Source: an uncultured Pseudomonadales bacterium (GTDB lineage: Bacteria > Patescibacteriota > Microgenomatia > UBA1400 > PJMF01). From it: a DNA stretch of 64,000 bases. The DNA lies in the NCBI GenBank assembly GCA_964583795.1, contig CAZOWX010000002.1, positions 14,966 through 78,965 on the forward strand. Reading direction: 5' to 3'. Positions within the stretch are counted from its first letter, which is position 1; every line of letters begins with the position of its first letter. This document shows positions 11,861 to 56,830 of the stretch, one piece after another. A program made the translations under genes and the position numbers. The notes beneath the pieces are model-generated. The model ran no database searches, was not told where the DNA came from, and saw nothing but the letters and a program-made list of their open reading frames with translations.

Positions 11861-12054
11861 CGGTCACCTTTATAAAGCTGTTATTATTATACTACAAGCA
11901 AGGCTTCCTGTCTGGCAAGCAGTGAAGTTTTCCACTTGAGGAAAAAGCTGCTTAGCTTTTTAAGCATCAAAGTCCCATGCCGCTACTTCGAACGAATCAC
12001 TCTTGAGGAGACTTGCGCCACCCACCATTGAGTGTATATAATTCTTCCTCACCT

Positions 12055-12606
12055 ATGAAACAATCTGTTATCGACCAAGACACTGCCTTGATTTCTGATC
12101 TAAAGTCGGGCATACCAGAAGCAGTCGAGGTGTGGTACCGCAAGTACCTCAGAACCGTTCAAGCTTTTATCAATACTAAAGTCGACAATAAAAAAGATGT
12201 CGAAGAAATTACTCGTGAAACTTTTTTAAACTGTCTTCGGGATTTGCCACTTTTTCTGGGAAAATCATCACTCAAAACCTGGATGTTTCGTATCGCCTCA
12301 CATGAAGTTGCTGACTATTATCGGCGTCGTTATGCAAAAAAATTTATTCATGCAATCCCTTTGTCCACATATCTTTTTCATGAAGAACCAAAGCGCATGC
12401 ACGAGACTTCCTCTTACGTAGTCGAGGTTCTCAAGCGCATGCGCAATGAGTACAAGCAATTAATTATTCTGAAATATGTTGATAACTTGTCTGTCAAAGA
12501 AATCGCTCTAAAAGTGAATAGATCAATTAAATCGGTCGAGTCAGATCTGTTTCGCGCTAGAAAGGAGTTTCGAGTACTATATCAAACTGTTAGCGCAAAC
12601 AGGTAA
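12055..12606 (+). CDS. ECF-type sigma-70 family RNA polymerase sigma factor
   Basis: Region 2-like EITRETFLNCLRDLPLF...WMFRIASHEVADYYRRR and region 4-like LSVKEIALKVNRSIKSVESDLFRARKEF; divergent from the pilin array; track start 12013, ATG MKQSV at 12055 preferred. Confidence 0.7.
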   Translation: MKQSVIDQDTALISDLKSGIPEAVEVWYRKYLRTVQAFINTKVDNKKDVEEITRETFLNCLRDLPLFLGKSSLKTWMFRIASHEVADYYRRRYAKKFIHAIPLSTYLFHEEPKRMHETSSYVVEVLKRMRNEYKQLIILKYVDNLSVKEIALKVNRSIKSVESDLFRARKEFRVLYQTVSANR

Positions 12607-13059: not shown

Positions 13060-13371
13060 ATGGATAAAAGAACATTACTTACTTCAACTTTTTACAGCAT
13101 CTTGCAAGCTTCGAGTGGTTTAATTCTCCATCCGTATCAGACCATGCAACATTTGGTTGAAGACAGGATTTTTCTATGGCTGACGTTTTTACCGATCTAT
13201 CTGGGGATATTGTTTTATAGCACTTGGTGGTTTTCATTACAGTTTTTATTCCGCTACTTACCGTATCTGGGAGCTTGGGCTTTCTCGCTGATTTGGGGAA
13301 GTAGCTTTTTACTTTTCTGGCAAATTTTGCTGCTCTATTTATTTTTGCGGTTTTTCATGACGCTGCGATAA
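13060..13371 (+). CDS. Small integral membrane protein (hypothetical)
   Basis: 103 aa, three hydrophobic segments. Confidence 0.3.
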   Translation: MDKRTLLTSTFYSILQASSGLILHPYQTMQHLVEDRIFLWLTFLPIYLGILFYSTWWFSLQFLFRYLPYLGAWAFSLIWGSSFLLFWQILLLYLFLRFFMTLR

Positions 13372-13612
13372 AGAGTTTTCCTTGTTTCAATAATTTTGCG
13401 TGCTCGTGCAACAAGAAGGGCTCGTCATCCTTGACTTGCTAACTAGACTATTTAAGCGAGCAAGTCAGATCGTGAAATTCTGGTCCCGCACTGCGGGACC
13501 AAAATTTCACGATCTGACTGAACTGATTTTGAAAGTGTATCAGTTCAGTCAAGGATGACGACTTTTTATTTTTTTTCTTTCAATACACATTGAACCACTT
13601 CACGATCCACAA

Positions 13613-13660
13613 TCACCCCACTATTAACTGTTTCACTGTCCACTATTCACTAGCACTGCC
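13613..13660 (+). promoter_or_regulatory. Conserved upstream motif CCACTATTAACTGTTTCACTGTCCACTATTCACTA (copy 1); followed by TATAAT 8 nt before the ATG of 13679
   Basis: Near-identical copies in gene orientation upstream of 14793 (+), 26208 (-), dnaA 56664 (-) and at 26395-26440; contains a CACTATT direct repeat. Confidence 0.5.
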
Positions 13661-13678
13661 CTCCGCTATAATCACTCC

Positions 13679-14545
13679 ATGAATCTTCCCATCATCCTCG
13701 CTTTAGTCACCTTTATTGGCTGGGGGACAGGTGATTTATTCACGGTGGTTGCGACTCGCAAAATTGGGGCACTACTGACCACTTTTTGGGTGTTTGCCTT
13801 TAGTTTTTTTCTCTCGTTGCTCGTTTTTCCTCTGGTGCCACATTCATTTGGAAGTATCACGCTGCCACTTCTAATGTTTAATATTTTTTTGGGGATCTTG
13901 CTTGTTTCCGGCAATGTACTGATTAGCGAAGCGTTCAGAATCTCGAGTGCTCCACTAGTTGGAATTATTATTCAAGCCTTTCCAGCAGTTGTGTTGGTGC
14001 TCTCTGCGCTCATTTTTCACGATGTCATCACTCCAATTCAGATGGTGTTTACTGCAGTTATTTTCTGTGGTGTTTTTCTATGTAGCGTTGATCTGGGCAA
14101 GTTAAAACGAGCCGAAAAAATTCTTGACCGAGGAACGACGTTGGCGCTGATTGCGATGGTATTTCTCTCAACTTTTTTCACTTTTTCTCGCATCCTAATT
14201 AACGCGTATGACTGGTTTCTTCCCAGTTTCATTGCTACAGCATGTTTCCCTATTATTTTGCTCTTTATTCATGTCAAAAAAGAGCAATTTACTTTTCCCA
14301 AAGAACTCCCTATTCTCGGGGCTACATTTATGATTGCATTACTGATTCGTTCCGGTGATTTTGCGCTTAACTGGGGCCTCTCGATACCTAGGGCCAGTAG
14401 CATTGTCGCGCCGATTGCTGGAGCAGCTCCAATCTTGTTTGTAATTACCTCATCAGTCATTTTTAAGGACAAACTCACTAAACAGCAAGTTGCCGGTATT
14501 GTCACCACCTTGATTGGGATTGTGTTGCTGACCATGCAGCAGTGA
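13679..14545 (+). CDS. EamA/DMT-family transporter
   Basis: 288 aa, 10 TM helices, N-terminus MNLPIILALVTFIGWGTGDLF typical of EamA permeases. Confidence 0.55.
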   Translation: MNLPIILALVTFIGWGTGDLFTVVATRKIGALLTTFWVFAFSFFLSLLVFPLVPHSFGSITLPLLMFNIFLGILLVSGNVLISEAFRISSAPLVGIIIQAFPAVVLVLSALIFHDVITPIQMVFTAVIFCGVFLCSVDLGKLKRAEKILDRGTTLALIAMVFLSTFFTFSRILINAYDWFLPSFIATACFPIILLFIHVKKEQFTFPKELPILGATFMIALLIRSGDFALNWGLSIPRASSIVAPIAGAAPILFVITSSVIFKDKLTKQQVAGIVTTLIGIVLLTMQQ

Positions 14546-14749
14546 GTCCTGCTACGATTAGCTCCAAGAAATAACAGCTCCTGAACGGTCTGACTCTCAA
14601 CAGTCGCCAAACACTTCAGCTTAGCTGTCCGGTAGGCAGGGATGACGACTTTTTAGTTTTGTTGCTTTTGAAAAATTTTAAGACCAATTTAACACTTGCT
14701 CGCGGTTTATAGTTCTTGAATTTTTGAGCTGGAACATGAAGCTTGTAAC

Positions 14750-14790
14750 CCACTATTAACTGTTTCACTGTCCACTATTCACTACTTTTC
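14750..14790 (+). promoter_or_regulatory. Conserved upstream motif (copy 2) immediately 5' of the mevalonate operon
   Basis: cccactattaactgtttcactgtccactattcactac. Confidence 0.5.
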
Positions 14791-14831
14791 CTTTGCATGA
14801 TTTTGATCCATTTTTGCGACTATGTGAGTGT

Positions 14832-16019
14832 ATGGTTGACTCTACGATTCAACTCCACAATGCTCCTGGTGACACAGCAGAGCAACAATTTCACCACCGC
14901 CAAAATCTAGTCAGACAAGGGTGGGATGATGTTGCGCTGGATTCACTGCTGCAAACTCGACTCGATATCGATCAAGTTAGCACAAAAAATTGTGAGAATA
15001 TGATCGGCAGTGTTGAAGTCCCGGTAGGACTTGCTGGGCCAAGTACAGTTCAACTCGACAATCAAACAATGGAACTATGGATCCCCCTTGCCACCACAGA
15101 AGGCGCACTCGTGGCGAGTGTCAGTCGTGGAATGAAGTTACTCAGCCAAGCAGGAACAACAACAGTCATCACGCAAAAAAAAGGCATGTCACGTGCTCCA
15201 GTTTTTGAGTGCACCAATGGCAAAATAGCCCAAGAGTTTGCTGCGTGGTTGGACACTCAAACCCAGTTTTTTGCGCAGCAAGCAAGAGAGTCATCTTCAC
15301 ATCTCACTTATCTGAATCACACCGCGTTTATTCAAGGTCGAAGCGTCTTTGTCCGGTTTCACTTTGACACGAGTGAGGCCATGGGAATGAACATGATTAC
15401 GATTGCTCTGGAAAAAATCATCGGAAAGTTATTCAGCACTTTTTCTGGAGTAAAACTACTGAGCATCTCTGGCAACGTCTGTACTGACAAAAAGCCTGCA
15501 CATATTAACACGATCTTCGGACGCGGGTGGTGGGTGCAAGCGGAAAGTTTTATTCCCAAAGAGTTGATTGAACGATCACTGCACTCTGACGTGGAAACAA
15601 TTTTAAAAGTTCACACGCAAAAAAACCTCGTTGGCGGTCATATTGCTGGATCTTTGGGTCAAAACGCACATATCGCCAACGTTGCCGCAGCGTTTTATCT
15701 GGCAACGGGCCAAGATCTCGCACACACCGTCAACGCAAGTTTGGGATCAACCACAATTGAATCGACCGCTGACGGGATCTACTGTGCGGTGACTTTACCG
15801 GAAGTTGATGTGGGAAGTGTTGGTGGTGGAACAGTGCTTCAGCCGCAATCACAAGCACGACAACTGATTTGCCAAGATAAAAATGTTGCGGTAAACTCGC
15901 AACTCTTAGCCGTCACGCTCAGCGTCGGTTGCTTAGCCGCAGAATTGTCACTACTTGGAGCGCTAGCAGCAAAACATTTGGGGCGCGCTCACAATCAACT
16001 GGGCAGGGGAATCAAATGA
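14832..16019 (+). CDS. mvaA: Hydroxymethylglutaryl-CoA reductase
   Basis: ENMIGSVEVPVGLAGP, EAMGMNM and GGT motifs; track ORF starts at TTG 14793, first ATG at 14832. Confidence 0.8.
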   Translation: MVDSTIQLHNAPGDTAEQQFHHRQNLVRQGWDDVALDSLLQTRLDIDQVSTKNCENMIGSVEVPVGLAGPSTVQLDNQTMELWIPLATTEGALVASVSRGMKLLSQAGTTTVITQKKGMSRAPVFECTNGKIAQEFAAWLDTQTQFFAQQARESSSHLTYLNHTAFIQGRSVFVRFHFDTSEAMGMNMITIALEKIIGKLFSTFSGVKLLSISGNVCTDKKPAHINTIFGRGWWVQAESFIPKELIERSLHSDVETILKVHTQKNLVGGHIAGSLGQNAHIANVAAAFYLATGQDLAHTVNASLGSTTIESTADGIYCAVTLPEVDVGSVGGGTVLQPQSQARQLICQDKNVAVNSQLLAVTLSVGCLAAELSLLGALAAKHLGRAHNQLGRGIK

Positions 16020-17059
16020 AATTTAGCAAACCAATTGGCATTGTTTCGTATGGAGTCGCACTTCCGACTCTCTGCATTCAGACACATGAAATTGAAAAAG
16101 CCAACAATGCTCACGGAGTTGCGGCATCGCTTGGAATTAAGTCAAAAACCGTTCCCGATAAAGATGAAGATACTGTGACGTTAAGCACTCGGGCCCTTTT
16201 TCAAGCGCTTGAGCGCACTTCTCCAGAAATCAAAGACGAAATTGGAGCACTCTTTATCGGCAGTGAAAGTCACCCGTATGCCGTAAAACCCAGTGGTAGT
16301 ATTGTGGCAAATGCATTGGGTTTGAATCCAAAGTTGTCACTGGCTGATCTACAATTCGCGTGTAAAGCCGGCACCCAATCACTACAAATCACCTTTAGTT
16401 ATCTTGAGGCTGGATTAACCCAATCTGCTGTGGCCATTGGCGCGGATACCGCCCAAGGAGCACCGGGAGATGCATTAGAGTACAGTGCAGCCGCTGGAGC
16501 AGCTGCTTTTATTTTGGGAACTGAGAATGTACTGGCAAAAGTGATCGCCTCGACCTCTATTGCAACAGACACTCCAGATTTTTGGCGTCGTCCCAAACAA
16601 AGTTATCCAAAACATGCCGGTCGATTTTCCGGTGAACCGGCGTACATGACTCATATTATTGATAACACTCATCAGATTCTTGATGAAGTGAATATGGATA
16701 TTAAAGACTTTGACTTGATTGTATTTCACACTCCCAATAAAAAATTCCCTCAAGCTGTAGCCAAAACACTCAATTGCACCAAAGAGCAACTGCAACATAG
16801 TTTAATTGTAGAAACGGTTGGCAATACCTATGCTGCGGCCAGTTTGATTGCTTTCGCAAACGTACTTGATCACGCGGGTGCAAATCAAAAGATTTTGGTC
16901 GTCTCATACGGATCGGGTTCTGGATCAGACGCATTTGTATTTGAAACCACAAATCATTTACCAAAGTCGCGAAAAAATTGGACGTCGCTCGTTTCAGATC
17001 AAATTGCAGCGCTTAAACCAATAGAATATCACCAGTACTTACAGCATTTGCATCATTAG
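16016..17059 (+). CDS. mvaS: Hydroxymethylglutaryl-CoA synthase
   Basis: ATGA overlap with mvaA stop; MKFSKPIGIVSYGVALP...; HMGCS/KAS III-like thiolase fold with active-site Cys region. Confidence 0.75.
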   Translation: MKFSKPIGIVSYGVALPTLCIQTHEIEKANNAHGVAASLGIKSKTVPDKDEDTVTLSTRALFQALERTSPEIKDEIGALFIGSESHPYAVKPSGSIVANALGLNPKLSLADLQFACKAGTQSLQITFSYLEAGLTQSAVAIGADTAQGAPGDALEYSAAAGAAAFILGTENVLAKVIASTSIATDTPDFWRRPKQSYPKHAGRFSGEPAYMTHIIDNTHQILDEVNMDIKDFDLIVFHTPNKKFPQAVAKTLNCTKEQLQHSLIVETVGNTYAAASLIAFANVLDHAGANQKILVVSYGSGSGSDAFVFETTNHLPKSRKNWTSLVSDQIAALKPIEYHQYLQHLHH

Positions 17060-17061
17060 CT

Positions 17062-18174
17062 ATGACAATCTCTATCATCGGCTCTAGCATTACTCAATTT
17101 GGCGAACTGTGGGATAAATCCCTAATTGATTTAGCCAAACAAGCAGTTGATGAATCACTCACTGATGCGAAGTTAGAACACGCTGACATTGAAGCAGTAT
17201 TTGTGGCCAACATGAGCAGCCACGTCTTCGATGGCCAGGCACAACTCGGGGCTTTGGTTTCACAATTCTTTCCCCACTACCCAAGTGCTTTTCACTCTGA
17301 AGCATCGTGTGCTTCTGGAAGTATGGCTCTCTTGAGTGCTCAGTATGCACTGCTTTCTGGTCGCTATACAACGGTGATGGTTGTCGGAGTAGAAAAAATG
17401 ACCGATGCTCCAAGCAGTGATGTCACTCAGATGCTGTCCGGTGCGGCAAAAAAATCAGAAGAAGAGGGGAGTACTTTTCCTGCCCTGTATGCTCTACTCG
17501 CGCAAATTCATATGAGCGAGTTTGGTACTTCACGCGAGATGTTAAGTGCTGTCGCTGTGCAAAATCATGAGCATGCATTTCAGAATCCTCATGCTCAATA
17601 CCATAAACACTTAACACAAGAGATTGTTTCCAATAGCACACTCGTTGCACCACCACTACGGTTGCTTGACTGCTCGCCTATTACTGATGGTGCTTCAGCA
17701 CTCATTCTTACCACCAAACCGGTAAAAAATGCAGTTCAAATCTTGGGCCGAGGTCATGGTCAGGACTCTCTTGATTTGGCATCTCGGGAAAAACTAACTA
17801 CATTGCAAGCCACAGTTCGAGCCAGTCGCGAAGCATTTTCTGAAGCGAAGCTCGATCATAAAAAAATTCAAGTCATTGAAGTGCACGATTGTTTTACCAT
17901 TGCCCAACTGTTGGCACTCGAAGATTTGGGATTTTATGAAAAAGGCAAAGCCGGAATCGCTACACTCAGTGGAAAAACCACTTTTGGTGGAGAGATCGTC
18001 GTTAATCCTTCCGGAGGATTAAAGGCCAGTGGTCATCCGGTTGGCGCCACTGGTGTGAAACAAGTTGCCTATTTAACAAAATTAATACAGCAAGATCAGT
18101 TTCCGCTCGCTCTCGCCCATAATGTGGGTGGTAGCGGAGCAACCGCAATTGTGCACATCATTGGAAAGGTGTAA
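17062..18174 (+). CDS. Thiolase (archaeal-type acetyl-CoA acetyltransferase)
   Basis: EASCASGSMALLSAQYALLSG...VVGVEKMTDAP; C-terminal GHPVGATG; in archaea forms a complex with HMGCS and DUF35. Confidence 0.75.
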   Translation: MTISIIGSSITQFGELWDKSLIDLAKQAVDESLTDAKLEHADIEAVFVANMSSHVFDGQAQLGALVSQFFPHYPSAFHSEASCASGSMALLSAQYALLSGRYTTVMVVGVEKMTDAPSSDVTQMLSGAAKKSEEEGSTFPALYALLAQIHMSEFGTSREMLSAVAVQNHEHAFQNPHAQYHKHLTQEIVSNSTLVAPPLRLLDCSPITDGASALILTTKPVKNAVQILGRGHGQDSLDLASREKLTTLQATVRASREAFSEAKLDHKKIQVIEVHDCFTIAQLLALEDLGFYEKGKAGIATLSGKTTFGGEIVVNPSGGLKASGHPVGATGVKQVAYLTKLIQQDQFPLALAHNVGGSGATAIVHIIGKV

Positions 18175-18176
18175 CT

Positions 18177-18464
18177 ATGTATCCCTCACAGTACTGGCGC
18201 GAAAGCAAAAAATGGGCGTCTCTGATTGGTCAAAAAGGCAAAGTGTTGGCTGTCACTACGGTTCACACACCTCCTCCTGAATACGAGCAATACTCTCCGT
18301 ATAACCTAGCTTTAGTTGAATTTAGCAATTTTCGCAAGCTGCTTCCCGTTCCTCCAGCGTACGAACTCTCAATGGGGCAAACAGTTGAAGTGGTGCTACG
18401 AAAAGGCGGCACAACCTCGGATGATGAAATCATTGCGTATCAATTAAAAGTTATTCCTGCCTAA
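18177..18464 (+). CDS. DUF35-like OB-fold protein (thiolase/HMGCS scaffold)
   Basis: 95 aa directly after the thiolase; OB-fold-like sequence with no Zn-ribbon cysteines; assignment by synteny and size. Confidence 0.45.
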   Translation: MYPSQYWRESKKWASLIGQKGKVLAVTTVHTPPPEYEQYSPYNLALVEFSNFRKLLPVPPAYELSMGQTVEVVLRKGGTTSDDEIIAYQLKVIPA

Positions 18465-18469
18465 ACTTC

Positions 18470-19102
18470 ATGAACACCGCAGACCTCGTCACTTTAGTGG
18501 ATGAAAGCGATCAAGTCATTGGATCGATGGATAAAGTTGAGGCCCACAAAGGGACAGCAATCCGACATCGAGCAATTAGCGTGTATTTATTTCAACAAAG
18601 AGATGACGGCGAATACCTGCTCATTCAGCAACGCAGTACCAAAAAAATTCTCGGTAGCCTGCAGTGGGCGAACACCGTTTGCGGAAATGTTTGGCCAAAT
18701 GAAAGTTATCATCAATGTGCAATGCGACGATTGTCGGTAGAGCTGGGAATTACTTCAGTAAACATTACGCCTATTCATAAGTTTGAGTATCACCTACAGT
18801 GTAGTGAACAATTCAGCGAATGGGAAATCGATCAAGTATTTGCAGGATGGTACGATGATGCAGTGACCGCAAATCCAGATGAAGTAAGAGACTTTGTTTG
18901 GGTGAAGTGGGAGGATTTAATAAACAAAAACAAGAATACACCATTTGATCATTCCCCCTTTAGAAGTAAAACAATTGAGATAACAAACCCAACAACACAA
19001 CAACTCAACAACACAACAACGCTTCAGCTGAGTCCTTGGTTCGTCCACATGCTTGATGATACCCAATTAGTTAACAAGCTAAATTCATTTGTAAACCAAT
19101 GA
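18470..19102 (+). CDS. idi: Isopentenyl-diphosphate delta-isomerase, type 1 (Nudix fold)
   Basis: HRAISVYLFQ...LLIQQRSTKKILGSLQWANTVCGNVWPNE...AMRRLSVELGI matches IDI-1 conserved blocks; carries an in-frame QQLNNTTT repeat insertion near the C-terminus. Confidence 0.7.
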   Translation: MNTADLVTLVDESDQVIGSMDKVEAHKGTAIRHRAISVYLFQQRDDGEYLLIQQRSTKKILGSLQWANTVCGNVWPNESYHQCAMRRLSVELGITSVNITPIHKFEYHLQCSEQFSEWEIDQVFAGWYDDAVTANPDEVRDFVWVKWEDLINKNKNTPFDHSPFRSKTIEITNPTTQQLNNTTTLQLSPWFVHMLDDTQLVNKLNSFVNQ

Positions 19103-19986
19103 CCACAACGGCTTCATCACCAGCAAAAGTCATTTTATTTGGCGAGCATGCTGTGGTACACGGGCATCCTGCTGTCGTTGCTACACTTGGACTCAAGGTG
19201 AATGCCACAGTAGAAGATTCAACATCTTCATCTCAATATTCTGAATTTATACAAAATATTTTGAGAATATTTGAACAAAAGTATCAACGCTCAACGAACA
19301 ATCTTAAAGTAACAATTCACAGCGAAGTACCCATTGGTGGTCACCTCGGATCATCGGCGGCAACTGCGAACGCTTTGTTTCAAGCTCTTTTACAACATTT
19401 CGAAATTTCGTTTACACAAAATCAGTTGCTCGATTTAGTCTATAAAAGTGAGCAGTTTGCTCATGGAAACCCCAGTGGCATTGATCCAACTGTAGTTGTT
19501 TATGGTGGAATTTTAGCATTTCAAAAAAAAGATGGTGAACTTACATTTTCACACATTCACACAACCGCTTTTCAAAACACACCATTTTTCCTTGTCCAAT
19601 CCGGAACGCCAAAAGAAAATACCAAGGAAATGGTCGCAAAAGTACAAGCACTGATTGATGCTAATGAAGAGAAAAAACAGGTATTAGAAAAGATCGGACA
19701 ACTGTCGCAAGCTGTCACCCTTGATCTAAGACACAATAATTTCAACCCTATTTTCATAACCCAAAATGAACGACTACTTGAAAAAATCGAGGTTGTCGGT
19801 AAAAAAGCGCAATCAATGATCAGTCAAATTGAACTAATTGGGGGTTTTGCAAAAGTAACCGGCGGGGGTGGTTATCAAGAGGGAAGCGGGATGCTTCTCG
19901 CCCATCATCCCCAACCAGAAATTCTGCGAAACTTTTTGCAAACAAACAATTGGGAATTTTTTGATGTGAATCTAGGAGAACTATGA
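19099..19986 (+). CDS. mvk: Mevalonate kinase (GHMP kinase)
   Basis: SPAKVILFGEHAVVHGHPAVVA and PIGGHLGSSAATANA (GHMP motif II). Confidence 0.7.
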   Translation: MTTTASSPAKVILFGEHAVVHGHPAVVATLGLKVNATVEDSTSSSQYSEFIQNILRIFEQKYQRSTNNLKVTIHSEVPIGGHLGSSAATANALFQALLQHFEISFTQNQLLDLVYKSEQFAHGNPSGIDPTVVVYGGILAFQKKDGELTFSHIHTTAFQNTPFFLVQSGTPKENTKEMVAKVQALIDANEEKKQVLEKIGQLSQAVTLDLRHNNFNPIFITQNERLLEKIEVVGKKAQSMISQIELIGGFAKVTGGGGYQEGSGMLLAHHPQPEILRNFLQTNNWEFFDVNLGEL

Positions 19987-20954
19987 ACAACGTTACTGTA
20001 TCCGCACCTGGCAAGCTATTACTTTACGGCGACCACTCTGTGGTGCACGGACATCCCTGTATCGTCACCGCTGTCGATCAGCGAATGTACGTTACCGTTC
20101 AAGAAAGCGCTAAGAGACAACTTTGCGTCATTGCTCCAGATGTTGACACACAAAAATACGAAAAAGCAATTGCGCAACTAGGAGAAGGGACTACTCCAAA
20201 GTCGGTTGCTTTTATCGAACATTGTTACAAGCGGTTTTTAGAAAAACATCCACAATCAACAGGGATCGTAGTTACTACCAAAAGTGATTTTTCGTCACTG
20301 TTTGGGTTTGGTTCCAGTAGTGCAGTGACAGTCGCGTTTGCGAAAGCGCTAAGCACACTTTACTCTGTTACACTCTCAAATAAAGAGTTATTTGATCTTT
20401 GCTATAGCGCTGTCATTGACGTCCAAGGAGTTGGCTCCGGGTTTGACATTGCCGTCGCAATCTGGGGTGGAACAATTTACTATGTCAGTCCAGCAAAAAC
20501 TGTCGAGTCAGTGAATTGTCCTGATTTACCGCTCATTGTTGGATACACGGGTGTAAAAGCCGATACGCCAACGCTCATTCGGCAAGTTGCGCAACAAAAA
20601 GAAAAACATCCTGAAGAAGTTGAACACATCTTTCAAAGCATCACTCAAATTGTTGATCAATCCAAAGTATGCTTAGAAAAACAAGACTGGCACAAAGCAG
20701 GAAAACTCTTGACAGAGAATCAGCAACTGTTGCGAAAACTGCATGTGAGTAGTACAGTCCTAGACAATTTAATCAATGCTGCCAATCTAGCCGGAGCGTA
20801 CGGAGCAAAGCTCTCGGGTGCTGGCGGTGGAGACTGTATGATTGCTTTTTGCGATGCCGCTCATCACATGAGAGTGATTGAAGCCATCCAGAAAGCCGGT
20901 GGCACTCACATGAGTGTGAGTACCAATGCAACGGGGGTAAGGATTGAGAAATAA
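19983..20954 (+). CDS. GHMP kinase, putative phosphomevalonate kinase
   Basis: SAPGKLLLYGDHSVVHGHP, GFGSSSAVTVAFAKA; second GHMP kinase in the operon, exact substrate not resolvable from sequence. Confidence 0.5.
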   Translation: MNNVTVSAPGKLLLYGDHSVVHGHPCIVTAVDQRMYVTVQESAKRQLCVIAPDVDTQKYEKAIAQLGEGTTPKSVAFIEHCYKRFLEKHPQSTGIVVTTKSDFSSLFGFGSSSAVTVAFAKALSTLYSVTLSNKELFDLCYSAVIDVQGVGSGFDIAVAIWGGTIYYVSPAKTVESVNCPDLPLIVGYTGVKADTPTLIRQVAQQKEKHPEEVEHIFQSITQIVDQSKVCLEKQDWHKAGKLLTENQQLLRKLHVSSTVLDNLINAANLAGAYGAKLSGAGGGDCMIAFCDAAHHMRVIEAIQKAGGTHMSVSTNATGVRIEK

Positions 20955-21100
20955 AAAAATAAATTACTTTAAATAATAGAGTCAGATCCTCGATCTCGAT
21001 GGCTTCACTTGGTACGTCCAGGGCGAACCAGGTTCACTCATCGGGTCAAACCTACCTCGCTGGTAGACAGGTATGACAACGTTGAAGGAGCCACATACAC

Positions 21101-22081
21101 ATGCAAAAAGCCACAGCCAAAGCCTCATCGGATATTGCCCTCATCAAATATTGGGGGAAGAAAGATGAAATACTTCGTCTGCCCGAGAACTCGAGTATCT
21201 CTCTCATCTTGGATGGACTGGATACCACAACTACGGTAGAGTTCCAACCAGAGCTAAAAAAGGACTTTGTCACCATTTCAGGTGAAATAGAAGAAGGAGA
21301 AGAGGGGCGGGTGATCAAACATTTAGATCGCATTCGCAAGTTAGCAAATATTTCTACTTATGCAAAAGTTGTCTCGGACAATAACTTTCCGAAAGCAACA
21401 GGCCTGTCAAGTTCGGCATCAGGTTTCGCAGCATTATCATACGCTGCATCAAAAGCGGCAGGACTCAATTTGTCAGAAAAACAACTCAGCATTTTATCCA
21501 GACAAGGTTCCGGCAGCGCCTGCCGTTGTGCTTGTGGGGGGATCGTGCAGTGGCTCGATGGAGACACTTCTGAAACTTCGTACTCAAAATCGCTTTACGA
21601 TTCTCACTATTGGGACATTCGTGATGTGATAGCAGTAGTTGATGAAGGGAAGAAAAGCATTTCATCAACGGCAGGACACACCACAGCTCGAAGCAGTATT
21701 TTCTATCAATCCAGGCAAGATAATTTGCCAAAAAAAATCAAGGCTTTAAAAAATGCTCTGAAGAAAAAAGACTTTACACAATTGGGAGAGATTGCAGAAG
21801 GAGATGCTCTTGAATTTCACACCATTCTACTCACTTCTCACCCTGCTCTCATTGCCTGGTATCCCGGGACCATTGAAGTCATGCTCGCAGTGCAAGCGAT
21901 GAGAAAAGAGGGAGTAGAAGCGTATTTCACTATTAACACAGGGTTTAATGTTCACATTTTGACTCTCCCCGAAAATGAAAAGAAAGTGCGATCTCGGTTG
22001 CAAAAATTACCTTTAGTGCAAAAAACACTGATCGCTAAAATTGGTGAAAAACCAAAGTTTTTAACAAAGCACTTATTCTAA
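21101..22081 (+). CDS. mvaD: Diphosphomevalonate decarboxylase
   Basis: ASSDIALIKYWGKKDE...NSSISLIL, GLSSSASGFAAL motifs. Confidence 0.8.
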   Translation: MQKATAKASSDIALIKYWGKKDEILRLPENSSISLILDGLDTTTTVEFQPELKKDFVTISGEIEEGEEGRVIKHLDRIRKLANISTYAKVVSDNNFPKATGLSSSASGFAALSYAASKAAGLNLSEKQLSILSRQGSGSACRCACGGIVQWLDGDTSETSYSKSLYDSHYWDIRDVIAVVDEGKKSISSTAGHTTARSSIFYQSRQDNLPKKIKALKNALKKKDFTQLGEIAEGDALEFHTILLTSHPALIAWYPGTIEVMLAVQAMRKEGVEAYFTINTGFNVHILTLPENEKKVRSRLQKLPLVQKTLIAKIGEKPKFLTKHLF

Positions 22082-22088
22082 AAAAAAC

Positions 22089-22634
22089 ATGTCTGAAACA
22101 ATTGTAGAAGTTACTGAAAACGGAGAGATGGTGGGCCCTATTGATAGAGATGTGGCTCATCAAAAAAATATCCCCCACGCAATTGTAATGATTTTACTTC
22201 GAACACCAAAATCATCACCCCAAGCATTGTTTCAAGTTCGAGGGAAAAATGTAAAAAAATATCCAGGGTTTATTACGTTAACAGCAACTGGTCATATCAG
22301 ATATGAGGAAGGAAGAACGCTACAAGAACTTGCAAAAACAAATGCAAAAGAAGAACTTGAACAGGAAACAAAAGGTTTCGTTCTTTTGGGAGATATCGGA
22401 AAGATTGATTTGAAGCTGACAACCCAAGGATTCTTTTCTGATGGAGAAGAACGACAATATGTCTTTATTTTTACTGCTGAGATAGAGCACTTGCCACAAT
22501 TACAATCTGCTAAAAACGAAGAGGTCGCTCAACTGAAAATGCTTACAATCGATGAGGTTTTAAAGCTCGCAAAACAAGGACAAGTTACACCATTTGCTTT
22601 AGAAGCATTACGGTTGCTTAAATTAATTGATTAA
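22089..22634 (+). CDS. Nudix-fold protein (degenerate Nudix box)
   Basis: Nudix-like core ...TATGHIRYEEGRTLQELAKTNAKEELEQE; function unclear. Confidence 0.4.
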   Translation: MSETIVEVTENGEMVGPIDRDVAHQKNIPHAIVMILLRTPKSSPQALFQVRGKNVKKYPGFITLTATGHIRYEEGRTLQELAKTNAKEELEQETKGFVLLGDIGKIDLKLTTQGFFSDGEERQYVFIFTAEIEHLPQLQSAKNEEVAQLKMLTIDEVLKLAKQGQVTPFALEALRLLKLID

Positions 22635-22657
22635 AATCTTTTTACTTTCATAAATAC

Positions 22658-23200
22658 ATGCCTCTCGATGACGCTACAGAGCTTTTTTATCAGGTAGATC
22701 AACACGATCGCGAGATTGGACGGATCACTAGAAAACAAGCCCACTCAAATCCTAACATCATTCATCGTAGTGTTGCCGCATTAATCATTAACCAAAATGA
22801 TGAGATGTTATTTCAAAAACGAAGTCTACAAAAAGATATGAACCCTGGATTTTGGAGCTATGGTGTAGGGGGACATGTAAACTATGGTCAAACATACCAA
22901 TCAGCCATAGTTAGAGAACTACAAGAAGAGTTGGGGTTAATTCATCCTCAAGTTCGATTCCTCAAAAAAATTCTTGTCCCGAGTGAAAAAGAAACAGAGA
23001 TGAAATCAGTATTTGAAGTGCGATTAAAAGAAGTACCTCACTTTGTTTTGGATTCTACAGAAGTATCCGAAGTACAATGGGTGAGTATTGATAAAATTAC
23101 TCATTTTGTGAACACCCATCCATTTACTGACTGGACCATCATGACATTAAAACATACCGGGTATTTAGATGAAAACTTCATACAAAAAGGAGAAATATGA
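22658..23200 (+). CDS. Nudix hydrolase
   Basis: Nudix box GGHVNYGQTYQSAIVRELQEELGL. Confidence 0.6.
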   Translation: MPLDDATELFYQVDQHDREIGRITRKQAHSNPNIIHRSVAALIINQNDEMLFQKRSLQKDMNPGFWSYGVGGHVNYGQTYQSAIVRELQEELGLIHPQVRFLKKILVPSEKETEMKSVFEVRLKEVPHFVLDSTEVSEVQWVSIDKITHFVNTHPFTDWTIMTLKHTGYLDENFIQKGEI

Positions 23201-23898
23201 CAAAAACAAGCTTATCTAACCCTAAACATATTGCCATCATCATGGACGGTAATCGACGCTGGGCAAAACAACACAAACTTAAAGCTTTGCAAGGACATCA
23301 GTATGTCACCGACAAAGTAATAGAACCATTACTCGATGCTTGTGTAGAGCGAGGAGTGGAGTACTTAACTCTCTGGGCATTTAGTACTGAGAACTGGCAG
23401 CGCGACAAAGCAGAAGTTGAAGGATTAATGAAAATCTTTCGCAGCGCTTTTTCAAAAAGTGCTCAAGATTTATACAAGAAAGGAGTGCGTCTCAATTACA
23501 TCGGTGACATGTCGAAATTCCCACCAGACATTCAAGAAGGTGTAAAAAAATGGATGGATATTTCAAAGAATAATACGAAGATAACAGCCACATTTGCTCT
23601 CAATTACGGTGGTCATGATGAAATTATTCGAGCAATTCACAAACTCAAAGCAATAAACATTGATTCGCAAACAGTGACAGCGGATCAATTTTCAAGCTTG
23701 CTTGATACTGCCAAATTGCCAAACCCCGATCTGCTTATTCGACCAGGGGGAGAACAACGGCTTTCTGGTTTCATGCCGTGGCAGACAGTGTACACCGAGC
23801 TATACTTCACCGATGTTCTCATGCCAGACTTTGATGAAAGCGAACTGCAAAAAGCAATAGAGGAGTATCAAAGTCGGTCAAGACGTTTTGGACGGTAA
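23197..23898 (+). CDS. uppS: Undecaprenyl-diphosphate synthase (cis-isoprenyl transferase)
   Basis: HIAIIMDGNRRWAK, ...RPGGEQRLSGF motifs. Confidence 0.9.
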   Translation: MTKTSLSNPKHIAIIMDGNRRWAKQHKLKALQGHQYVTDKVIEPLLDACVERGVEYLTLWAFSTENWQRDKAEVEGLMKIFRSAFSKSAQDLYKKGVRLNYIGDMSKFPPDIQEGVKKWMDISKNNTKITATFALNYGGHDEIIRAIHKLKAINIDSQTVTADQFSSLLDTAKLPNPDLLIRPGGEQRLSGFMPWQTVYTELYFTDVLMPDFDESELQKAIEEYQSRSRRFGR

Positions 23899-23912: not shown

Positions 23913-24680
23913 GCGTCATCCTCGACCCGACAGAGAAATCCTGGCTACCAGCCAAGAGAGATCAGTCGAGCATCGGGGATCCATAAAAAAATCCCTTTAT
24001 AGAATCGGTCAACGTGGCTATTTTATCCGGTCGTACCAGAGCTCAAAATTCATAGTTTCCTGAATTAACATTGCGAGCACACAGTGCTCTTTTGACAAAA
24101 AAAACTACAGCTTGCTTAAAATGTGTAGAAATGAATCCCTGATGCTCGTCAAAAGAAGGCAGCAATTGGGGTGATCTTGTGAATTCCTGATCCCGCAGTG
24201 CGGGATCAGGAATTCACGATCTGACTGAACTGATTTGAAAAGTGTATCAGTTCAGTCAAGGGTGACAACTTTTTGTTTTTTTTGCTTTCGAAACGGATTT
24301 GCTAATACCCTTTTAATGGATTTACATTGCCTTAATGTTTTTTCTTGATCGTTACCCAGACAAACTGTAGTTGGAGAAATTGGCTCATTGGGTGAAGTCG
24401 TCACGATCATTTACTCAAGATTTTAAACATTAAGGATTCTGACTTTAGATCCTGAATCCGTCATGCTCGTACCTCGCTTGACTGTCCAGGATGACGAGGA
24501 TTATCTGAATAAAAAAGGTTTTAAAACACCAATGGAGAAGTGGTTTAAAAATAAGTAGAGAAGTGGTCTTCTATTTTATTTTTATGATTTAATTTGTAAA
24601 AAAGTTATCAAAGGTTACTGACTTTAGATCCCGATTTTCATCGGGATGACGACAGCTATTCAACTTATCACTTACAACTT
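23913..24680. repeat. Gene-free ~1 kb region packed with dispersed hairpin elements (75-bp element copy; CCCGCAGTGCGGGA hairpin; GTCATCCCGATGAAAATCGGGATC hairpin; GGATGACAAC+T-tract module)
   Basis: Direct comparison with copies at 696-990, 13470-13600, 14638-14690, 27560-27640 and 44380-44990. Confidence 0.7.
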
Positions 24681-25278: not shown

Positions 25279-26184
25279 CTAATTGCCACCTTTTCCTGCA
25301 TTGGGAAGTCCGATTCCCCCTCCCAACTTCTGATCAATCTTCGCTTTAAATGATGCCAAAGGTTGTGCACCAACTAAAGGCTCTTTTTCAATAAAGAAAG
25401 TCGGTGTTCCACCTGCTCCAACTCGCTGTGCTAAAGTAGAGTCTGCCTCCGTTGCTTTCTTGTACTTGTCAGATTTCACACACGATACAGCTTTGTCACC
25501 ATTAGCACCCGCCGCATTAGCAAGCTCTGCATACTTCGCAAACAAAGCATCCCCTGAAAGTGGTGTCCAAATGGCTTGATTGGTAAAGAGTTGATCATGC
25601 ATTTGCTCAGCCTTACCCTGCTCTGCAGTACATCGAACTAACTGTGCAGCTGAGTTTGCATTGGGGTGAAACGAAAGTGGCTGATCACGCAGCACGATCT
25701 TCATCTTTCCCGATTTCACATAATCTTCGACCAACTGCTTGTGGGTATCGGTATAGTACCGTCCACAAAATGGACACTGATAATCCGTAAACTCAACCAT
25801 AGTGATTTTGGCATTTTTATTGCCAATAACCATTACAGGATCTTTTTGAATTTCCTTCCAATCGGCATCGGATAATGGCGCTGCTTCTGGAGGTGCTTGT
25901 TGCTGTTGAGCAGCTGGCTGTTGGGCAACACTTCCTGATCCTCCACCGGCCCTCAAGGTTTGATTTTCTTTCCACATCGAACCAAACACAAAACCAAAAA
26001 GGAAAAGCCCTCCGCCTAAAACTAATAACAGAAAGTTGTTATTGATAAATGACAACATCGCAGACAAAGAATAATTGTTTGCCATTGGTGACGCGGTTGT
26101 TATTGATGGAGTATTATCCGAAACAGATTCCACTTTTACCACCCTTTTATTCGGCGCGCGGTCGACCGCTTTTTTTGTTGGCAT
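25279..26184 (-). CDS. DsbA-family thiol:disulfide oxidoreductase, membrane-anchored
   Basis: CPFC active site (EFTDYQCPFCGRYY); N-terminal TM helix; start set at MPTKK (ATG 26184) preceded by AAGGAG 5 nt upstream. Confidence 0.75.
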   Translation of the reverse strand: MPTKKAVDRAPNKRVVKVESVSDNTPSITTASPMANNYSLSAMLSFINNNFLLLVLGGGLFLFGFVFGSMWKENQTLRAGGGSGSVAQQPAAQQQQAPPEAAPLSDADWKEIQKDPVMVIGNKNAKITMVEFTDYQCPFCGRYYTDTHKQLVEDYVKSGKMKIVLRDQPLSFHPNANSAAQLVRCTAEQGKAEQMHDQLFTNQAIWTPLSGDALFAKYAELANAAGANGDKAVSCVKSDKYKKATEADSTLAQRVGAGGTPTFFIEKEPLVGAQPLASFKAKIDQKLGGGIGLPNAGKGGN

Positions 26185-26274
26185 ACTGCTCCTTGAAAAA
26201 TTCATCACTATTTTTTTATCGATCTCACTCTATCAAAAAAAAAGACGTGTGGAAAGCGGGAATTTGATTTTAGT

Positions 26275-26312
26275 TAACAGTAAACAGTGAATAGTTAATA
26301 GTGGGCCGTCAA
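26275..26312 (-). promoter_or_regulatory. Conserved upstream motif (copy 3, minus orientation) 5' of the DsbA-like gene
   Basis: Reverse complement cccactattaactattcactgtttactgttaac. Confidence 0.45.
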
Positions 26313-26394
26313 AGAGTTTTTCTAGTAGCTAGTTGAGAGCAAAGAATGTTTAGCTTCGTCACCATTGTCGATAGCAGTTCTGAGTACTATTTTA

Positions 26395-26440
26395 GTGTTA
26401 ACTATTAACTGTTTCACTGCTAACTGTCCTTTATCTTCCT
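26395..26440 (+). promoter_or_regulatory. Conserved motif (copy 4); with copy 3 forms an inverted pair flanking an ~80-bp spacer at the 3' end of trxB
   Basis: taactattaactgtttcactgctaactgtcc. Confidence 0.4.
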
Positions 26441-27432
26441 TCCAACCATCGCTCTGCATCCAGTGCTGCTTGGCACCCTTGTGCCGCTGCAGTGATCGCT
26501 TGTTTGTAGCGCACATCCACTGCATCTCCAGCAGCAAATACTCCTTCAACACTTGTCATTGTGGGAAATGCCACGAGCCCTTCTTCACTGAGAGCCGCTT
26601 GAGCTTGTTCCACTCCATTTTTTGTGGCACTGGTACGATTCACAATGTATCCATGCCCATCCAGTTCCACACTATTATCCAAAAACTGAGACGTCGGGCG
26701 ATGTCCAATTGCTAAAAACACTCCATCCGTTGGAACAACCTGCTCTTTCCCATCTGTCACAACTCTCAATCCTTCTACTTTTTGTTCACCGACGACTTCT
26801 TTTGTTTCAGTATTCCATAGCACTTTGATCTTCGGATGATTCAGCACTCGCTCTTGCATAATTTTGCTCGCACGAAACGCATCACGTCGATGAACAATCG
26901 TTACCGATTTGGCAAATTTCGTTAACGCCATTGCATCTTCCATCGCACTATCACCGCCACCAATCACAATCGTATCTTTTTCTCGAAAAAACGCGGCATC
27001 ACACACAGCGCACGTCGAAACACCGCGACCAATGAGTCGCTCTTCTCCAGGGATTCCCAACATTACCGACTCTGCCCCTGTGGCTATGATCACCGCTTTA
27101 GTCTGATACTCTGTTTCTTTTTCACCTGTCCCTATGTACACTTTTTTCACGGTTGGGTCGGAAAAATCAACTCGCTCAACATTCTTATACTCAACCTTCG
27201 CTCCAAAATGTTCTGCTTGCTTACGCATCTCATCCATTAGCTTTGGACCATCGACGCCATGTTCAAATCCGGGATAATTTTCAATCACTGTTGTCCACAT
27301 CAGTTGCCCACCGGCTTTTTCACCAGCAAGGATCAAAGGCGCCAAACTGGCTCTCGCAGCATAAATGCCGGCAGTGTATCCCGAAGGACCGGAGCCGATA
27401 ATGATAACATCATGGAGAGTGGGAGTGGACAT
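26431..27432 (-). CDS. trxB: Thioredoxin-disulfide reductase
   Basis: IIIGSGPSGYTAGIYAARA (FAD), CAVCDAAFF redox-active disulfide, GGGDSAMEDA (NADPH). Confidence 0.9.
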   Translation of the reverse strand: MSTPTLHDVIIIGSGPSGYTAGIYAARASLAPLILAGEKAGGQLMWTTVIENYPGFEHGVDGPKLMDEMRKQAEHFGAKVEYKNVERVDFSDPTVKKVYIGTGEKETEYQTKAVIIATGAESVMLGIPGEERLIGRGVSTCAVCDAAFFREKDTIVIGGGDSAMEDAMALTKFAKSVTIVHRRDAFRASKIMQERVLNHPKIKVLWNTETKEVVGEQKVEGLRVVTDGKEQVVPTDGVFLAIGHRPTSQFLDNSVELDGHGYIVNRTSATKNGVEQAQAALSEEGLVAFPTMTSVEGVFAAGDAVDVRYKQAITAAAQGCQAALDAERWLEGR

Positions 27433-36144: not shown

Positions 36145-37452
36145 ATGAACCCACCCAGTCAACCGTTGACCGTTCTCGCTATAGAATCGTCCTGTGACGA
36201 GACTGCTTGTTCAGTAGTACAAAAAAGTGACAGTGAACCATTGGCTCACGTCCTCTCCTCTGTTACGGCAACCAGTCTGGCCAAGCATAAAGCAACCAAA
36301 GGAATTGTTCCTGAAATAGCTGCGAGAGAGCAGTTAAAGTATATATTGCCGGTTATTGAGGAAGCGCTGAGTAAACTCAAAACTCAAAACTCAAAATTCA
36401 AAATTGGTAGTCAAAAAACATCCAATAACCAATACCCAACAACCAATACCCAACTTGATGCAATAGCGGTTACCGTCGGTCCAGGATTAGCTGGGTCGCT
36501 CTTAGTCGGGATTGAGACCGCTCGTGCCCTCGCAATGGCGTGGAATCTTCCCATTATTCCGGTCAATCACATAAAGGCTCACCCGTATGCAAATTTCATC
36601 AAAAGTCAAAGCTCAACAAACGATAAACTGGTTCGTGCAGTTGTGAATGAACGATCAACAACTCAACAACTCAACAGCTCAACAACAGTCCCAAACTTTC
36701 CCCTTCTCTCCTGGGTAATCTCCGGCGGACATACCGATTTATTTCTAATGAACTCTCACACCGATATTCAACGACTTGGTGGAACTGTCGATGATGCGGC
36801 TGGTGAGTGCTTTGACAAGTGCGCTCGCGTTCTTGGATTTGATTATCCAGGCGGACCGTTTATCGAAAAATTGGCAGGGGGAAAAAGGAAGATCCCCAAT
36901 GGCCAAGCTCATCCCCCTCGCTTTGCACTTCAGGATGACAAAAACCATCATTTCGGCGAAAGCCGGGATCTATCCACAGTTGTTGTGTCAACAACCCAAC
37001 AACCGAACAACACAACAACTATCCCCCTCCCCCGCCCGCTCTTTTACGAGAAGACTCTGAACATGTCCTTTTCCGGTCTTAAGGCAGCTTTTTTGCGATC
37101 ATTCAACGAAAACAAAGAAACAATCCCACTAGAAGAACTTCAGCACAAACTCGCAACTGCGTTGCAAGAAGCAGTCACAGACATTATCGTCAAACGTACC
37201 CAGCAAGCACTCGAGCTCTATCCGCAAGTTCGCTCAATCATCGTCTCTGGTGGCGTCAGTGCAAATCAGAAATTAAGAGAAAAACTCGACACTCACACCC
37301 AACAACCCAACAACACAACCACTCAACAACTGACAATGCACTTTCCCTCTATTGATTACTGTACCGACAACGCAGCAATGATCGGCAGCTACGCGCTGTT
37401 TCACATGGATGAAAAAACGGATTGGAAAAATGTAAAACTTGACTTAAGCTAA
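36145..37452 (+). CDS. tsaD: tRNA N6-adenosine threonylcarbamoyltransferase TsaD, with several in-frame repeat insertions
   Basis: LAIESSCDETACSVV N-terminus, HIKAHPYA, GGVSANQKLREKL; about 95 aa longer than typical TsaD because of low-complexity inserts (NNQYPTTNTQ; STTQQLNSSTT; HFGESRDLSTVVVSTTQQPNNTTT; HTQQPNNTTTQQL). Confidence 0.8.
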   Translation: MNPPSQPLTVLAIESSCDETACSVVQKSDSEPLAHVLSSVTATSLAKHKATKGIVPEIAAREQLKYILPVIEEALSKLKTQNSKFKIGSQKTSNNQYPTTNTQLDAIAVTVGPGLAGSLLVGIETARALAMAWNLPIIPVNHIKAHPYANFIKSQSSTNDKLVRAVVNERSTTQQLNSSTTVPNFPLLSWVISGGHTDLFLMNSHTDIQRLGGTVDDAAGECFDKCARVLGFDYPGGPFIEKLAGGKRKIPNGQAHPPRFALQDDKNHHFGESRDLSTVVVSTTQQPNNTTTIPLPRPLFYEKTLNMSFSGLKAAFLRSFNENKETIPLEELQHKLATALQEAVTDIIVKRTQQALELYPQVRSIIVSGGVSANQKLREKLDTHTQQPNNTTTQQLTMHFPSIDYCTDNAAMIGSYALFHMDEKTDWKNVKLDLS

Positions 37453-44379: not shown

Positions 44380-44990
44380 GTCCACTTCCGTCATCCCGAC
44401 GAAAGTCGGGATCTAAAGTCAGAGTTCTTTGGGATTGTTTGAAAAAATATTCTTTTAATTCCTCAACGGTTTTTTCATTGTATTGAAATTAAGGAAATGG
44501 ATCCCGGCCTTGCGCCACCGCTAAAGCTTTATGCGACACGCGGTCGCCGGGATGACGACTTTTTAGTTTTTTTGCTTTCGAATAAGTTTTTCACAAATTA
44601 AAACGCAGTATCCTGTTGGAATGCGAAATAGTATTGAGATAAAAAGGAAACGCTTGTCATCCTTGCGGAGGCGAGGATCTGACTGTAAATGGCTTTGGAG
44701 TCAGGTCCTCGATACTTGGCCCGCCCTGGGCGGGCCAGGTTCAAGGATGACAACTTTTTTATTGTAGTGGCTTTTGAAATAGTTTTTCTCAATCATCTCT
44801 CTGTATTTTCCGAAATGACGACTTTTTAGGTTTTTTGCTTTCAAAATACTAAGTTTTCCTCAATCAACTCTCCGATTTCGACGGCTTTACTCGATCGAGC
44901 TGAGCTCAACGGGTTCATTCATCGGGTCAAGGATGACGACTTTTTTATTTTTGCGGTTTCGAAATTGACTTTCTAGGCTTGGTCCAGACC
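44380..44990. repeat. Cluster of at least 5 hairpin plus T-tract modules (...GGATGACGAC TTTTTAGTTTTTTTGCTTTCGAA) and GTCATCCCGACGAAAGTCGGGATC hairpins in a convergent intergenic gap
   Basis: Tail modules at 44550-44600, 44745-44800, 44812-44860, 44932-44985; hairpins at 44390-44425, 44500-44550, 44700-44745. Confidence 0.7.
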
Positions 44991-46034: not shown

Positions 46035-46039
46035 ATTTT

Positions 46040-56664: not shown

Positions 56665-56774
56665 AACTTTTTTGATGTTTTTCTTGAGGAAACTCGAAGA
56701 AAAAGCAGATGAGGGCAGTCAGTTTTCCACAATATACACATAGTTTTACACAATTGGCAAGAGGGGGTTTAGTA

Positions 56775-56830
56775 GTTAACAGTGAAACAGTGAAACAGTG
56801 AAATAGTGAAACAGTTAATAGTGAATAGTT
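56775..56830 (-). promoter_or_regulatory. Conserved upstream motif (copy 5, expanded by a CAGTGAAA x4 tandem) about 110 bp upstream of dnaA
   Basis: Reverse complement ctattcactattaactgtttcactatttcactgtttcactgtttcactg. Confidence 0.45.

Follow-up and report, generated by a model that had tools for sequence, protein, structure and literature searches.

7/8-nt tandem-repeat arrays between the genes of a Patescibacteria genome: a candidate lineage-specific repeat family

Heptamer arrays and small dispersed repeats are already known, notably from filamentous cyanobacteria, where Elhai et al. are said to have described, in 2008, heptanucleotide arrays of the STRR type together with small dispersed repeats; a member of the Patescibacteria is an unexpected host. 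Like the arrays reported here, STRRs consist of units of ~7 nt, with many unit sequences per genome, and are mostly intergenic, dispersed and lineage-specific. Both kinds lack target-site duplications (TSDs) and a transposase, co-occur with MITEs, and include identical short copies with sharp edges. The hosts differ, a large filamentous cyanobacterium there and a small Patescibacteria genome here, and sequence homology with STRRs is not expected. Unlike STRRs, the arrays described below mix 7-nt and 8-nt units within one array and have sister families that lie in frame in essential genes.

A different precedent is offered by proteins that bind contiguous short repeats. ParG has ACTC-box arrays, with at least four contiguous repeats of ~7–8 bp and a conserved core upstream of unrelated promoters. 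The same layout, in direct or inverted orientation and upstream of several unrelated promoters, is found for omega (ParB) of pSM19035 and resembles what we see here; omega needs at least four contiguous heptads, tolerates either orientation, and loses activity when the heptad array contains a gap (PMC9499535). In contrast to the omega and ParG sites, our arrays are chromosomal, do not keep a strict heptad and are not conserved among relatives, and no cognate ribbon-helix-helix (RHH) or ParA gene accompanies them in the DNA analysed. ParB is also reported to bind a parS-related motif present in multiple copies (bioRxiv 10.1101/280743).

Dispersed palindromes form a third group. REP/BIME elements, including CGTC-tagged REPs (PMC3733652), resemble two of our arrays (C and D, below) in lying between co-directional genes and being able to fold into a long hairpin, here in the trxB 3′ region; they differ in that the arms here are tandem arrays without a fixed stem-loop bearing a tetranucleotide tag, while most copies are solo and form no hairpin. 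Rickettsia palindromic elements (PMC3733652) and Borg tandem repeats (PMC9879509) illustrate how repeats can invade a compact genome and be tolerated in frame in proteins. Here, this likeness concerns sister arrays and MITE pieces in the genes for TsaD and ValRS, whereas the arrays of the family under study stay intergenic; unlike genic Borg repeats (PMC9879509), the sister arrays have units whose length in nucleotides is not divisible by three.

Five arrays of one repeat family

We analysed a 64-kb stretch of one genome (hereafter the window). DnaA homologues place the organism within Patescibacteria (candidate phyla radiation, CPR), near sequences labelled Woesebacteria. A sequence-only reading of the window had proposed a conserved ~35-bp motif upstream of unrelated genes, and its copies are real: five were found (arrays A–E, Table 1), with none expected by chance. 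An exact 34-mer occurs twice in the window (13619–13652 and 14751–14784; 0.00 expected from shuffles), and the identity between A and B stretches to 36 nt (CCCACTATTAACTGTTTCACTGTCCACTATTCACTA). Clusters of at least three ACTRT units at 6–9 nt spacing number four, against 0.01 expected from 100 dinucleotide shuffles. Array D, which has one ACTGC unit, is the fifth copy and was recovered by a repeat search rather than by the ACTRT cluster scan.

All five arrays consist of 4–7 head-to-tail units of ACTRTT plus 1–2 variable nucleotides. The ACT anchors are spaced by 7, 8, 7 and 7 nt in A and B, by 7, 7, 7 and 7 nt in C, by 7, 8 and 7 nt in D, and by 7, 7, 8, 8, 8, 8 and 7 nt in E; Tandem Repeats Finder (TRF) reports a period of 7/8 with 4.6–4.8 copies. 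Unit number varies between copies, with four units in A–D and seven in E, whose order (ACTATTC-ACTATTA-ACTGTTTC-ACTATTTC-ACTGTTTC-ACTGTTTC-ACTGTTA-ACTA) includes near-perfect 8-mer repeats. Because the copies resolve into such 7/8-bp units, the 35-bp motif is a short tandem-repeat array of variable length and not a fixed 35-bp site. Two details noticed earlier hold at this level: the description of the dnaA copy as CAGTGAAA amplified four times agrees with TRF (period 8, 4.8 copies), and the CACTATT direct repeat recurs at a distance of 22 nt in A and B. The ACT core is unchanged in 24/24 units; intragenic CAACAAC arrays show a similarly invariant core. The AT content of A and B is 64%, versus 57.5% for the window.

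C and D had been seen to pair as an inverted repeat, and they do, with a stem of ~25 bp and a loop of ~95 nt (RNA fold z = −3.1). This is the only site with an inverted ACTRTT pair, three of the copies being solo. No further copy of the 94-nt spacer between C and D turned up in the window or the fetched loci, and no TSDs flank arrays A–E or the C/D pair.

Table 1. Arrays of the ACTRTT family, neighbouring regulatory features and palindromic repeats in the window.
Feature	Position	Strand	Details
Array A	13617–13652	+	CC-C(ACTATTA)(ACTGTTTC)(ACTGTCC)(ACTATTC)ACTA; ends 14 nt 5′ of the EamA-promoter TATAAT
Array B	14749–14784	+	36/36 identical to A, sharp boundaries; ends 8 nt 5′ of the conserved mvaA leader/promoter block, 47 nt 5′ of ATG 14832
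Array C	26271–26305	−	CCC(ACTATTA)(ACTATTC)(ACTGTTT)(ACTGTTA)ACTA; ends 15 nt 5′ of the conserved dsbA −35
Array D	26400–26429	+	A(ACTATTA)(ACTGTTTC)(ACTGCTA)(ACTGTCC); adjoins trxB stop codon 26431–26433; inverted partner of C
Array E	56773–56830	−	7 units incl. four TTTCACTG-type 8-mers; ends 12 nt 5′ of the dnaA −35
C/D spacer	26306–26399		unique; between the heads of C and D; hairpin loop
Putative leaderless EamA promoter	13667–13681	+	TATAAT 13667–13672, 6 nt, ATG 13679; equivalent in L050
mvaA leader/promoter block (TTGCATGATTTTGATCCATTTTTGCGACTATGTGAGTGTATG)	14793–14834	+	conserved with L021; array B outside the block
dsbA core promoter TTTCCA-17-TAGAGT	26227–26255	−	conserved in L021; SD AAGGAG 26194–26189, ATG 26184
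dnaA promoter TTGCCA-18-TATATT	56723–56760	−	−35 TTGCCA 56760–56755; overlaps two DnaA boxes
Perfect (CAAC/GTTG)14.5 microsatellite	56860–56917	−	just 5′ of array E; absent in relatives
CGTC-tagged REP/MITE-like elements	2181–2240, 13463–13585, 14636–14692, 24179–24292, 24592–24652, 36942–36970, 42255–42283, 44385–44963

Promoters, neighbouring genes and relatives

Pfam backs the earlier gene calls around the arrays: EamA (13679–14545), HMG-CoA reductase followed by HMG-CoA synthase and thiolase, a DsbA/thioredoxin-like protein (25279–26208, −), a TrxB-like protein (26431–27432, −), DnaA (55147–56664, −) and a VirB4/TraG-like ATPase (57046–58929, −). The start of mvaA (HMG-CoA reductase) is ATG 14832, with a 395-aa product on record, so that array B does lie upstream of mvaA as first read, at the tabulated distance rather than at the ~40 nt given then. 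Arrays A, B, C and E lie directly 5′ of putative core promoters, those of EamA, the mevalonate operon, dsbA and dnaA, respectively; the array overlaps the putative −35 in A and stands 8 nt from it in B, 15 nt in C and 12 nt in E. No function is common to the downstream genes. A gene-oriented placement is seen for four of the five copies, a proportion that falls short of significance (one-sided binomial 0.19).

The mevalonate operon (14832–23898) is complete and of archaeal flavour, in a Patescibacteria genome, and comprises genes for HMG-CoA reductase, HMG-CoA synthase, thiolase, a small OB-fold/DUF35-like protein, a NUDIX protein, GHMP kinases, a decarboxylase and a prenyltransferase; it is syntenic with the relative L021. 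At dnaA, DnaA boxes at 56723–56731 and 56744–56752 adjoin array E, and none lies inside it. Clusters of DnaA boxes flank dnaA on both sides (54760–54917 and 56723–56752), the upstream ones at 20 nt from array E. The cumulative GC skew reaches its minimum at ~52–54 kb, and both signs locate the replication origin in the dnaA/dnaN region. The tetranucleotide microsatellite upstream of array E, read as (GTTG)14.5 (CAAC in the sense direction of dnaA), is located between dnaA and the virB4-like gene, has a length typical for hypermutable contingency repeats, and is missing in the four relatives compared at this locus.

These four relatives (L019, GCA_039934415.1; L020; L053; L054) were compared over 15–21 kb each and have DnaA proteins 79–86% identical to that of the window. 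They share the gene order of a T4SS cluster, dnaA and dnaN, and all four keep two TGTGGAAAA DnaA boxes just 5′ of dnaA, with neither an ACTRTT array nor a (CCAA)n repeat upstream of the gene. For the mvaA and dsbA/trxB sites, the syntenic relative is L021 (21 kb; HMGR 62% identical), with pilins, a sigma factor, the mevalonate operon, DUF5654, dsbA and trxB in order. It retains the dsbA promoter TTTCCA-17-TAGAGT almost base for base as well as the mvaA leader, and has no array at either the mvaA or the dsbA/trxB site, nor any 7/8-nt array in its 21 kb. Across ~99 kb from the five relatives, no ACTRT cluster was found. Since the relatives keep the core elements without the arrays, the arrays stand outside the conserved regulatory architecture, as additions specific to the window's organism. 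The motif is thus not conserved in the sense first proposed, being missing at dnaA in four relatives and at mvaA and dsbA/trxB in L021. A young lineage-specific regulon would still be compatible with this comparison, as the relatives are not very close (DnaA 79–86%, HMGR 62%) and 64 kb of one genome is covered.

The EamA locus has a history of its own. A TATAAT just before the EamA ATG had been pointed out and lies where Table 1 gives it; an EamA homologue from another lineage (L050) carries TGATATAAT 7 nt 5′ of its ATG, and this conserved TATAAT strengthens the suggestion of a leaderless transcript. The EamA/DMT transporter is 70–78% identical to homologues labelled Shapirobacteria, Woesebacteria and WWE3 (CPR lineages) and shares ~60% identity over the full length with one labelled Saccharimonadales. 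EamA was not found at the syntenic locus of L021, and two homologues with fetched neighbourhoods (74–75% identical; among L050, L051 and L052) lie in unrelated gene contexts, which suggests that EamA is horizontally mobile. Arrays A and B bracket the gene, and their flanks show no mutual similarity. Given the absence in L021 and the unrelated contexts elsewhere, the pair may plausibly have arisen when EamA entered by recombination at an array, leaving A and B on either side. A composite MITE-plus-array element was dropped as an explanation, since aligning the A/B flanks with other GGATGACGACTTTTT elements shows the array on A and B only.

Other repeats in the window and in other genomes

The ACTRTT family is not alone. 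Counting arrays of 7/8-nt units with three copies or more gives 29 for the window, versus 0.15 in shuffles, and their units are diverse (TACCCAA, GACACCT, ATCCTAC, GAACCTA, CTAACAAC, CAACAACN, AAAAGTC and others). Several of these families have dispersed copies that are 77–86% alike, as well as inverted pairs. Such arrays (at least three copies) are scarce in the relatives, with three in L019, one in L053 and none in L020, L021 and L054. The L019 spacer orthologous to 61554–61832 bears a heptamer array of unit CTTACAA, where the window has GAACCTA; the position is array-prone in the lineage, with the sequence itself not conserved.

In 22 arrays the sense strand is the G-poor one, against 6 with the opposite arrangement (p = 0.004). 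This bias is driven by intragenic arrays (11:1), the intergenic ones being split 11:5 (p = 0.21), with three of the five exceptions forming upstream arms of inverted pairs; a general orientation rule was, on the intergenic figures, dropped as functional evidence. ACTRTT units carry stop codons in all three antisense frames and in one sense frame, which accounts for their confinement to intergenic DNA. CAACAAC-type arrays lack such stops and are also found in 5′UTRs and in frame within genes.

In-frame 7/8-nt arrays (CAACAACN, AAACTCA, CCAATAA, ACCACACG, AAAAGTC) are present in the genes for TsaD (36145–37452) and ValRS (39913–42678), both essential, along with fragments of MITE/REP-like palindromes, likewise in frame. 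Compared with solved structures, TsaD has four extra segments (aa ~76–101, 155–183, 250–292 and 388–395), as does ValRS (aa ~36–75, 469–583, 603–611 and 738–817), and these extra peptide segments coincide with repeats. The palindromes belong to a CGTC-tagged REP/MITE-like family (CGTCATCCCGACGAAAGTCGGGATC ... GGATGACGACTTTTTAGTTTTTTTG) that often ends in a terminator-like T-run and is dense at 44.4–45.0 kb, a gene-free stretch; CGTC-tagged palindromes (CGTCATCC...) coexist with the C/D pair in the window. Inverted array pairs at 46041–46198, at 2250–2330 and in L019 (5195–5275) present a GT-rich arm and then a CA-rich arm along the direction of transcription, forming hairpins between co-directional genes; C/D has the same architecture with unrelated units. 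Upstream of an L25-like gene (45342–46034; region 46034–46100, −) lies an apparent extended −10 promoter, TGgTACAAT, and the 5′UTR, which lacks a Shine-Dalgarno sequence, is made up of CTAACAAC ×5 ending 6 nt short of the ATG. Rfam covariance models (gathering score) and a tRNA scan gave 0 matches over the whole window.

Beyond close relatives, the 18-mer ACTATTAACTGTTTCACT has 11 single-match loci in a genome collection that excludes the window's genome, versus ~17 chance matches estimated from the size of the collection, and seven further copies in one Terriglobia MAG. In that MAG (DASUFH01; L002, L009, L011, L013, L016 and L018), an AT-rich MITE of ~175 nt sits in a genome of 60% GC and has terminal inverted repeats of ~52 nt with a heptamer-like periodicity (CCCCACTTATTCATTAATCATTGGCTGTTCACTATTAACTGTTTCACTTAA). 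The Terriglobia copies were rejected as the same element, being a MITE terminal inverted repeat of different geometry with the CCCCACTTATT ends outermost. Metagenome and viral scans returned mostly chance singletons and a few true single arrays in unrelated organisms. Single ACTATT/ACTGTT(T)C arrays occur in unrelated phyla at L008 5893–5946 (a Binatia MAG, immediately 5′ of a tRNA gene), L032 5921–5991 (between convergent genes), L045 196–243 and L006 ~3093; they could hint at a shared binding preference or at convergence. In the literature searched, no arrays of this kind were described from Patescibacteria or the candidate phyla radiation.

Origin and possible roles of the arrays

On balance, selfish or neutral repeat DNA is a likelier identity for the arrays than a regulatory site under conservation. 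The reading we favour, with somewhat better than even confidence, is that of a short-tandem-repeat family specific to this lineage, which slippage would have expanded and short-patch recombination would have copied or homogenised. Replication slippage would lengthen and shorten the arrays, as suggested by the extra near-perfect TTTCACTG units in E and by the alternation between 7-bp and 8-bp registers. Short-patch recombination or gene conversion would seed copies at new intergenic sites and homogenise them; we infer such seeding from the complete identity of A and B, their sharp edges and the missing TSDs. The arrays would then be retained where the DNA is under no constraint, in the stretch from the upstream gene's end, or from a MITE terminator, to the next conserved core promoter, a placement that would make them look promoter-associated. 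Any intergenic insertion here would count as upstream of a gene, because the genome is compact and its genes are mostly co-directional. The ACTRTT family would be one among about thirty 7/8-nt arrays that proliferated together with MITE/REP-like palindromes. Its effect on transcription of EamA, mvaA, dsbA and dnaA is probably incidental, that of an AT-rich spacer 5′ of the −35 with no dedicated factor, and we infer that the arrays lack a dedicated function.

The main competitor sees the arrays as operators, or as centromere-like sites, for a protein that recognises short direct repeats lying end to end, which would make dnaA, the mevalonate operon, dsbA and EamA a young lineage-specific regulon. 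We regard this as unlikely, although several features fit it: 4–7 contiguous units whose ACT(R)TT core does not vary, as protein recognition would predict; positions directly 5′ of a putative −35 in four cases and in gene orientation for most copies; a combined direct and inverted arrangement at one site, as in omega operators; and units that contain GTTTCAC, the half-parS heptamer, with E beside the DnaA boxes of dnaA. Against it, the orthologous promoters of the five relatives do without arrays despite conserved core promoter elements, and the perfect identity of A and B is atypical for sites maintained by selection. The mixed 7/8-bp register and the variable distance to the promoter, from overlap to 15 nt, make for a poor fit to the gap-free heptad arrays that omega, the best-known binder of such repeats, needs. 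No RHH, ParB, ParA or other candidate binder was detected by Pfam among 30 ORFs of the window, small ones included. The chromosomal parS, a 16-bp palindrome (TGTTNCACGTGAAACA), has 0 matches at ≤3 mismatches in the 64 kb including dnaA, and the half-site GTTTCAC occurs 21 times versus 14.9 expected (10 of 100 shuffles reach 21, p ~0.1; 7 of the 21 inside arrays), so the parS/ParB idea was abandoned. A regulator for the ACTRTT family alone would also leave ~24 other arrays, with unrelated units at equivalent positions, unexplained, so that many regulators would be required. The regulator site proposed from the sequence is partly supported: the tandem repeats and promoter proximity stand, conservation does not. 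Two other protein-based candidates were set aside: an ECF-sigma promoter (nearby sigma gene 12013–12606, antisense TGAAAC as −35), for which no matching −10 was seen by eye, and units acting as DnaA boxes, which match at 5/9 positions, the true boxes lying beside array E. Placement of the copies is neither random with respect to genes nor accompanied by TSDs throughout, the two outcomes that were to count against regulation, and a regulatory role thereby keeps a place as the less parsimonious reading.

The arrays could also act in cis with no dedicated regulator, as UP-element-like or −35-supplying AT-rich DNA (TTCACT and TTAACT resemble TTGACA) that would strengthen a promoter, or generate one, at its landing site, which we consider quite improbable. 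All four gene-proximal arrays do end 0–15 nt 5′ of a putative −35, A and B are richer in AT than the window, and in A a TTCACT (13646–13651) or TATTCA lies 15–17 nt before the TATAAT, a spacing at which the leaderless EamA promoter may take its −35 from array A. Yet a consensus promoter scan of 13300–14900 gave no promoter, at B, C and E the conserved promoters lack nothing when the array is left aside, and the relatives do well with none; unlike UP elements, the units do not form A/T tracts, and insertion-tolerant sites explain the placement equally well. A transposable origin, with 26271–26429 as a complete MITE whose terminal inverted repeat survives as solo ends in A, B and E, had been offered as the alternative to regulation and now seems very improbable. 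The C/D stem, the wealth of MITE/REP-like elements in this genome and the Terriglobia MITE, with the same 18-mer in its terminal inverted repeat, speak for it. Against this, the TSD test, run on the pair and the solo copies, found none, the spacer is unique, three copies are solo, and the change from four to seven units suggests slippage rather than a fixed terminal repeat. The geometry is moreover reversed, the CCCACTATT heads pointing inward here and forming the outer termini in Terriglobia. As unrelated arrays are also paired inversely (2250–2330 and 46145–46198), pairing is a general property of arrays in this genome. Under the favoured reading, C/D probably behaves as a REP-type hairpin in the trxB 3′ region.

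A bolder synthesis joins repeat biology to regulation: an active, strand-aware process would generate and disperse repeats in this Patescibacteria lineage, placing G-poor 7/8-nt arrays between terminators and promoters, in 5′UTRs and in frame in essential genes, and the ACTRTT family would have been co-opted as putative binding arrays for a factor specific to the lineage, which would link four promoters, those of dnaA, the mevalonate (lipid-carrier) operon, dsbA and the DMT transporter. We hold this to be decidedly unlikely. If the arrays were true operators, they would mark out one of the first regulons in an uncultivated candidate-phyla-radiation bacterium, and replication initiation would be tied to envelope and isoprenoid genes.

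Under the favoured reading of a lineage-specific repeat family, the colonisation of a small genome by repeats is more notable than the motif itself. A supposedly streamlined Patescibacteria genome is heavily colonised by arrays and MITE/REP-like elements, even inside TsaD and ValRS, whereas its relatives are nearly free of them. Copies of such repeats can mislead motif-based regulon prediction, and genomes of this kind are natural experiments in how repeats arise and spread without obvious transposases and in how far promoters and proteins tolerate them.
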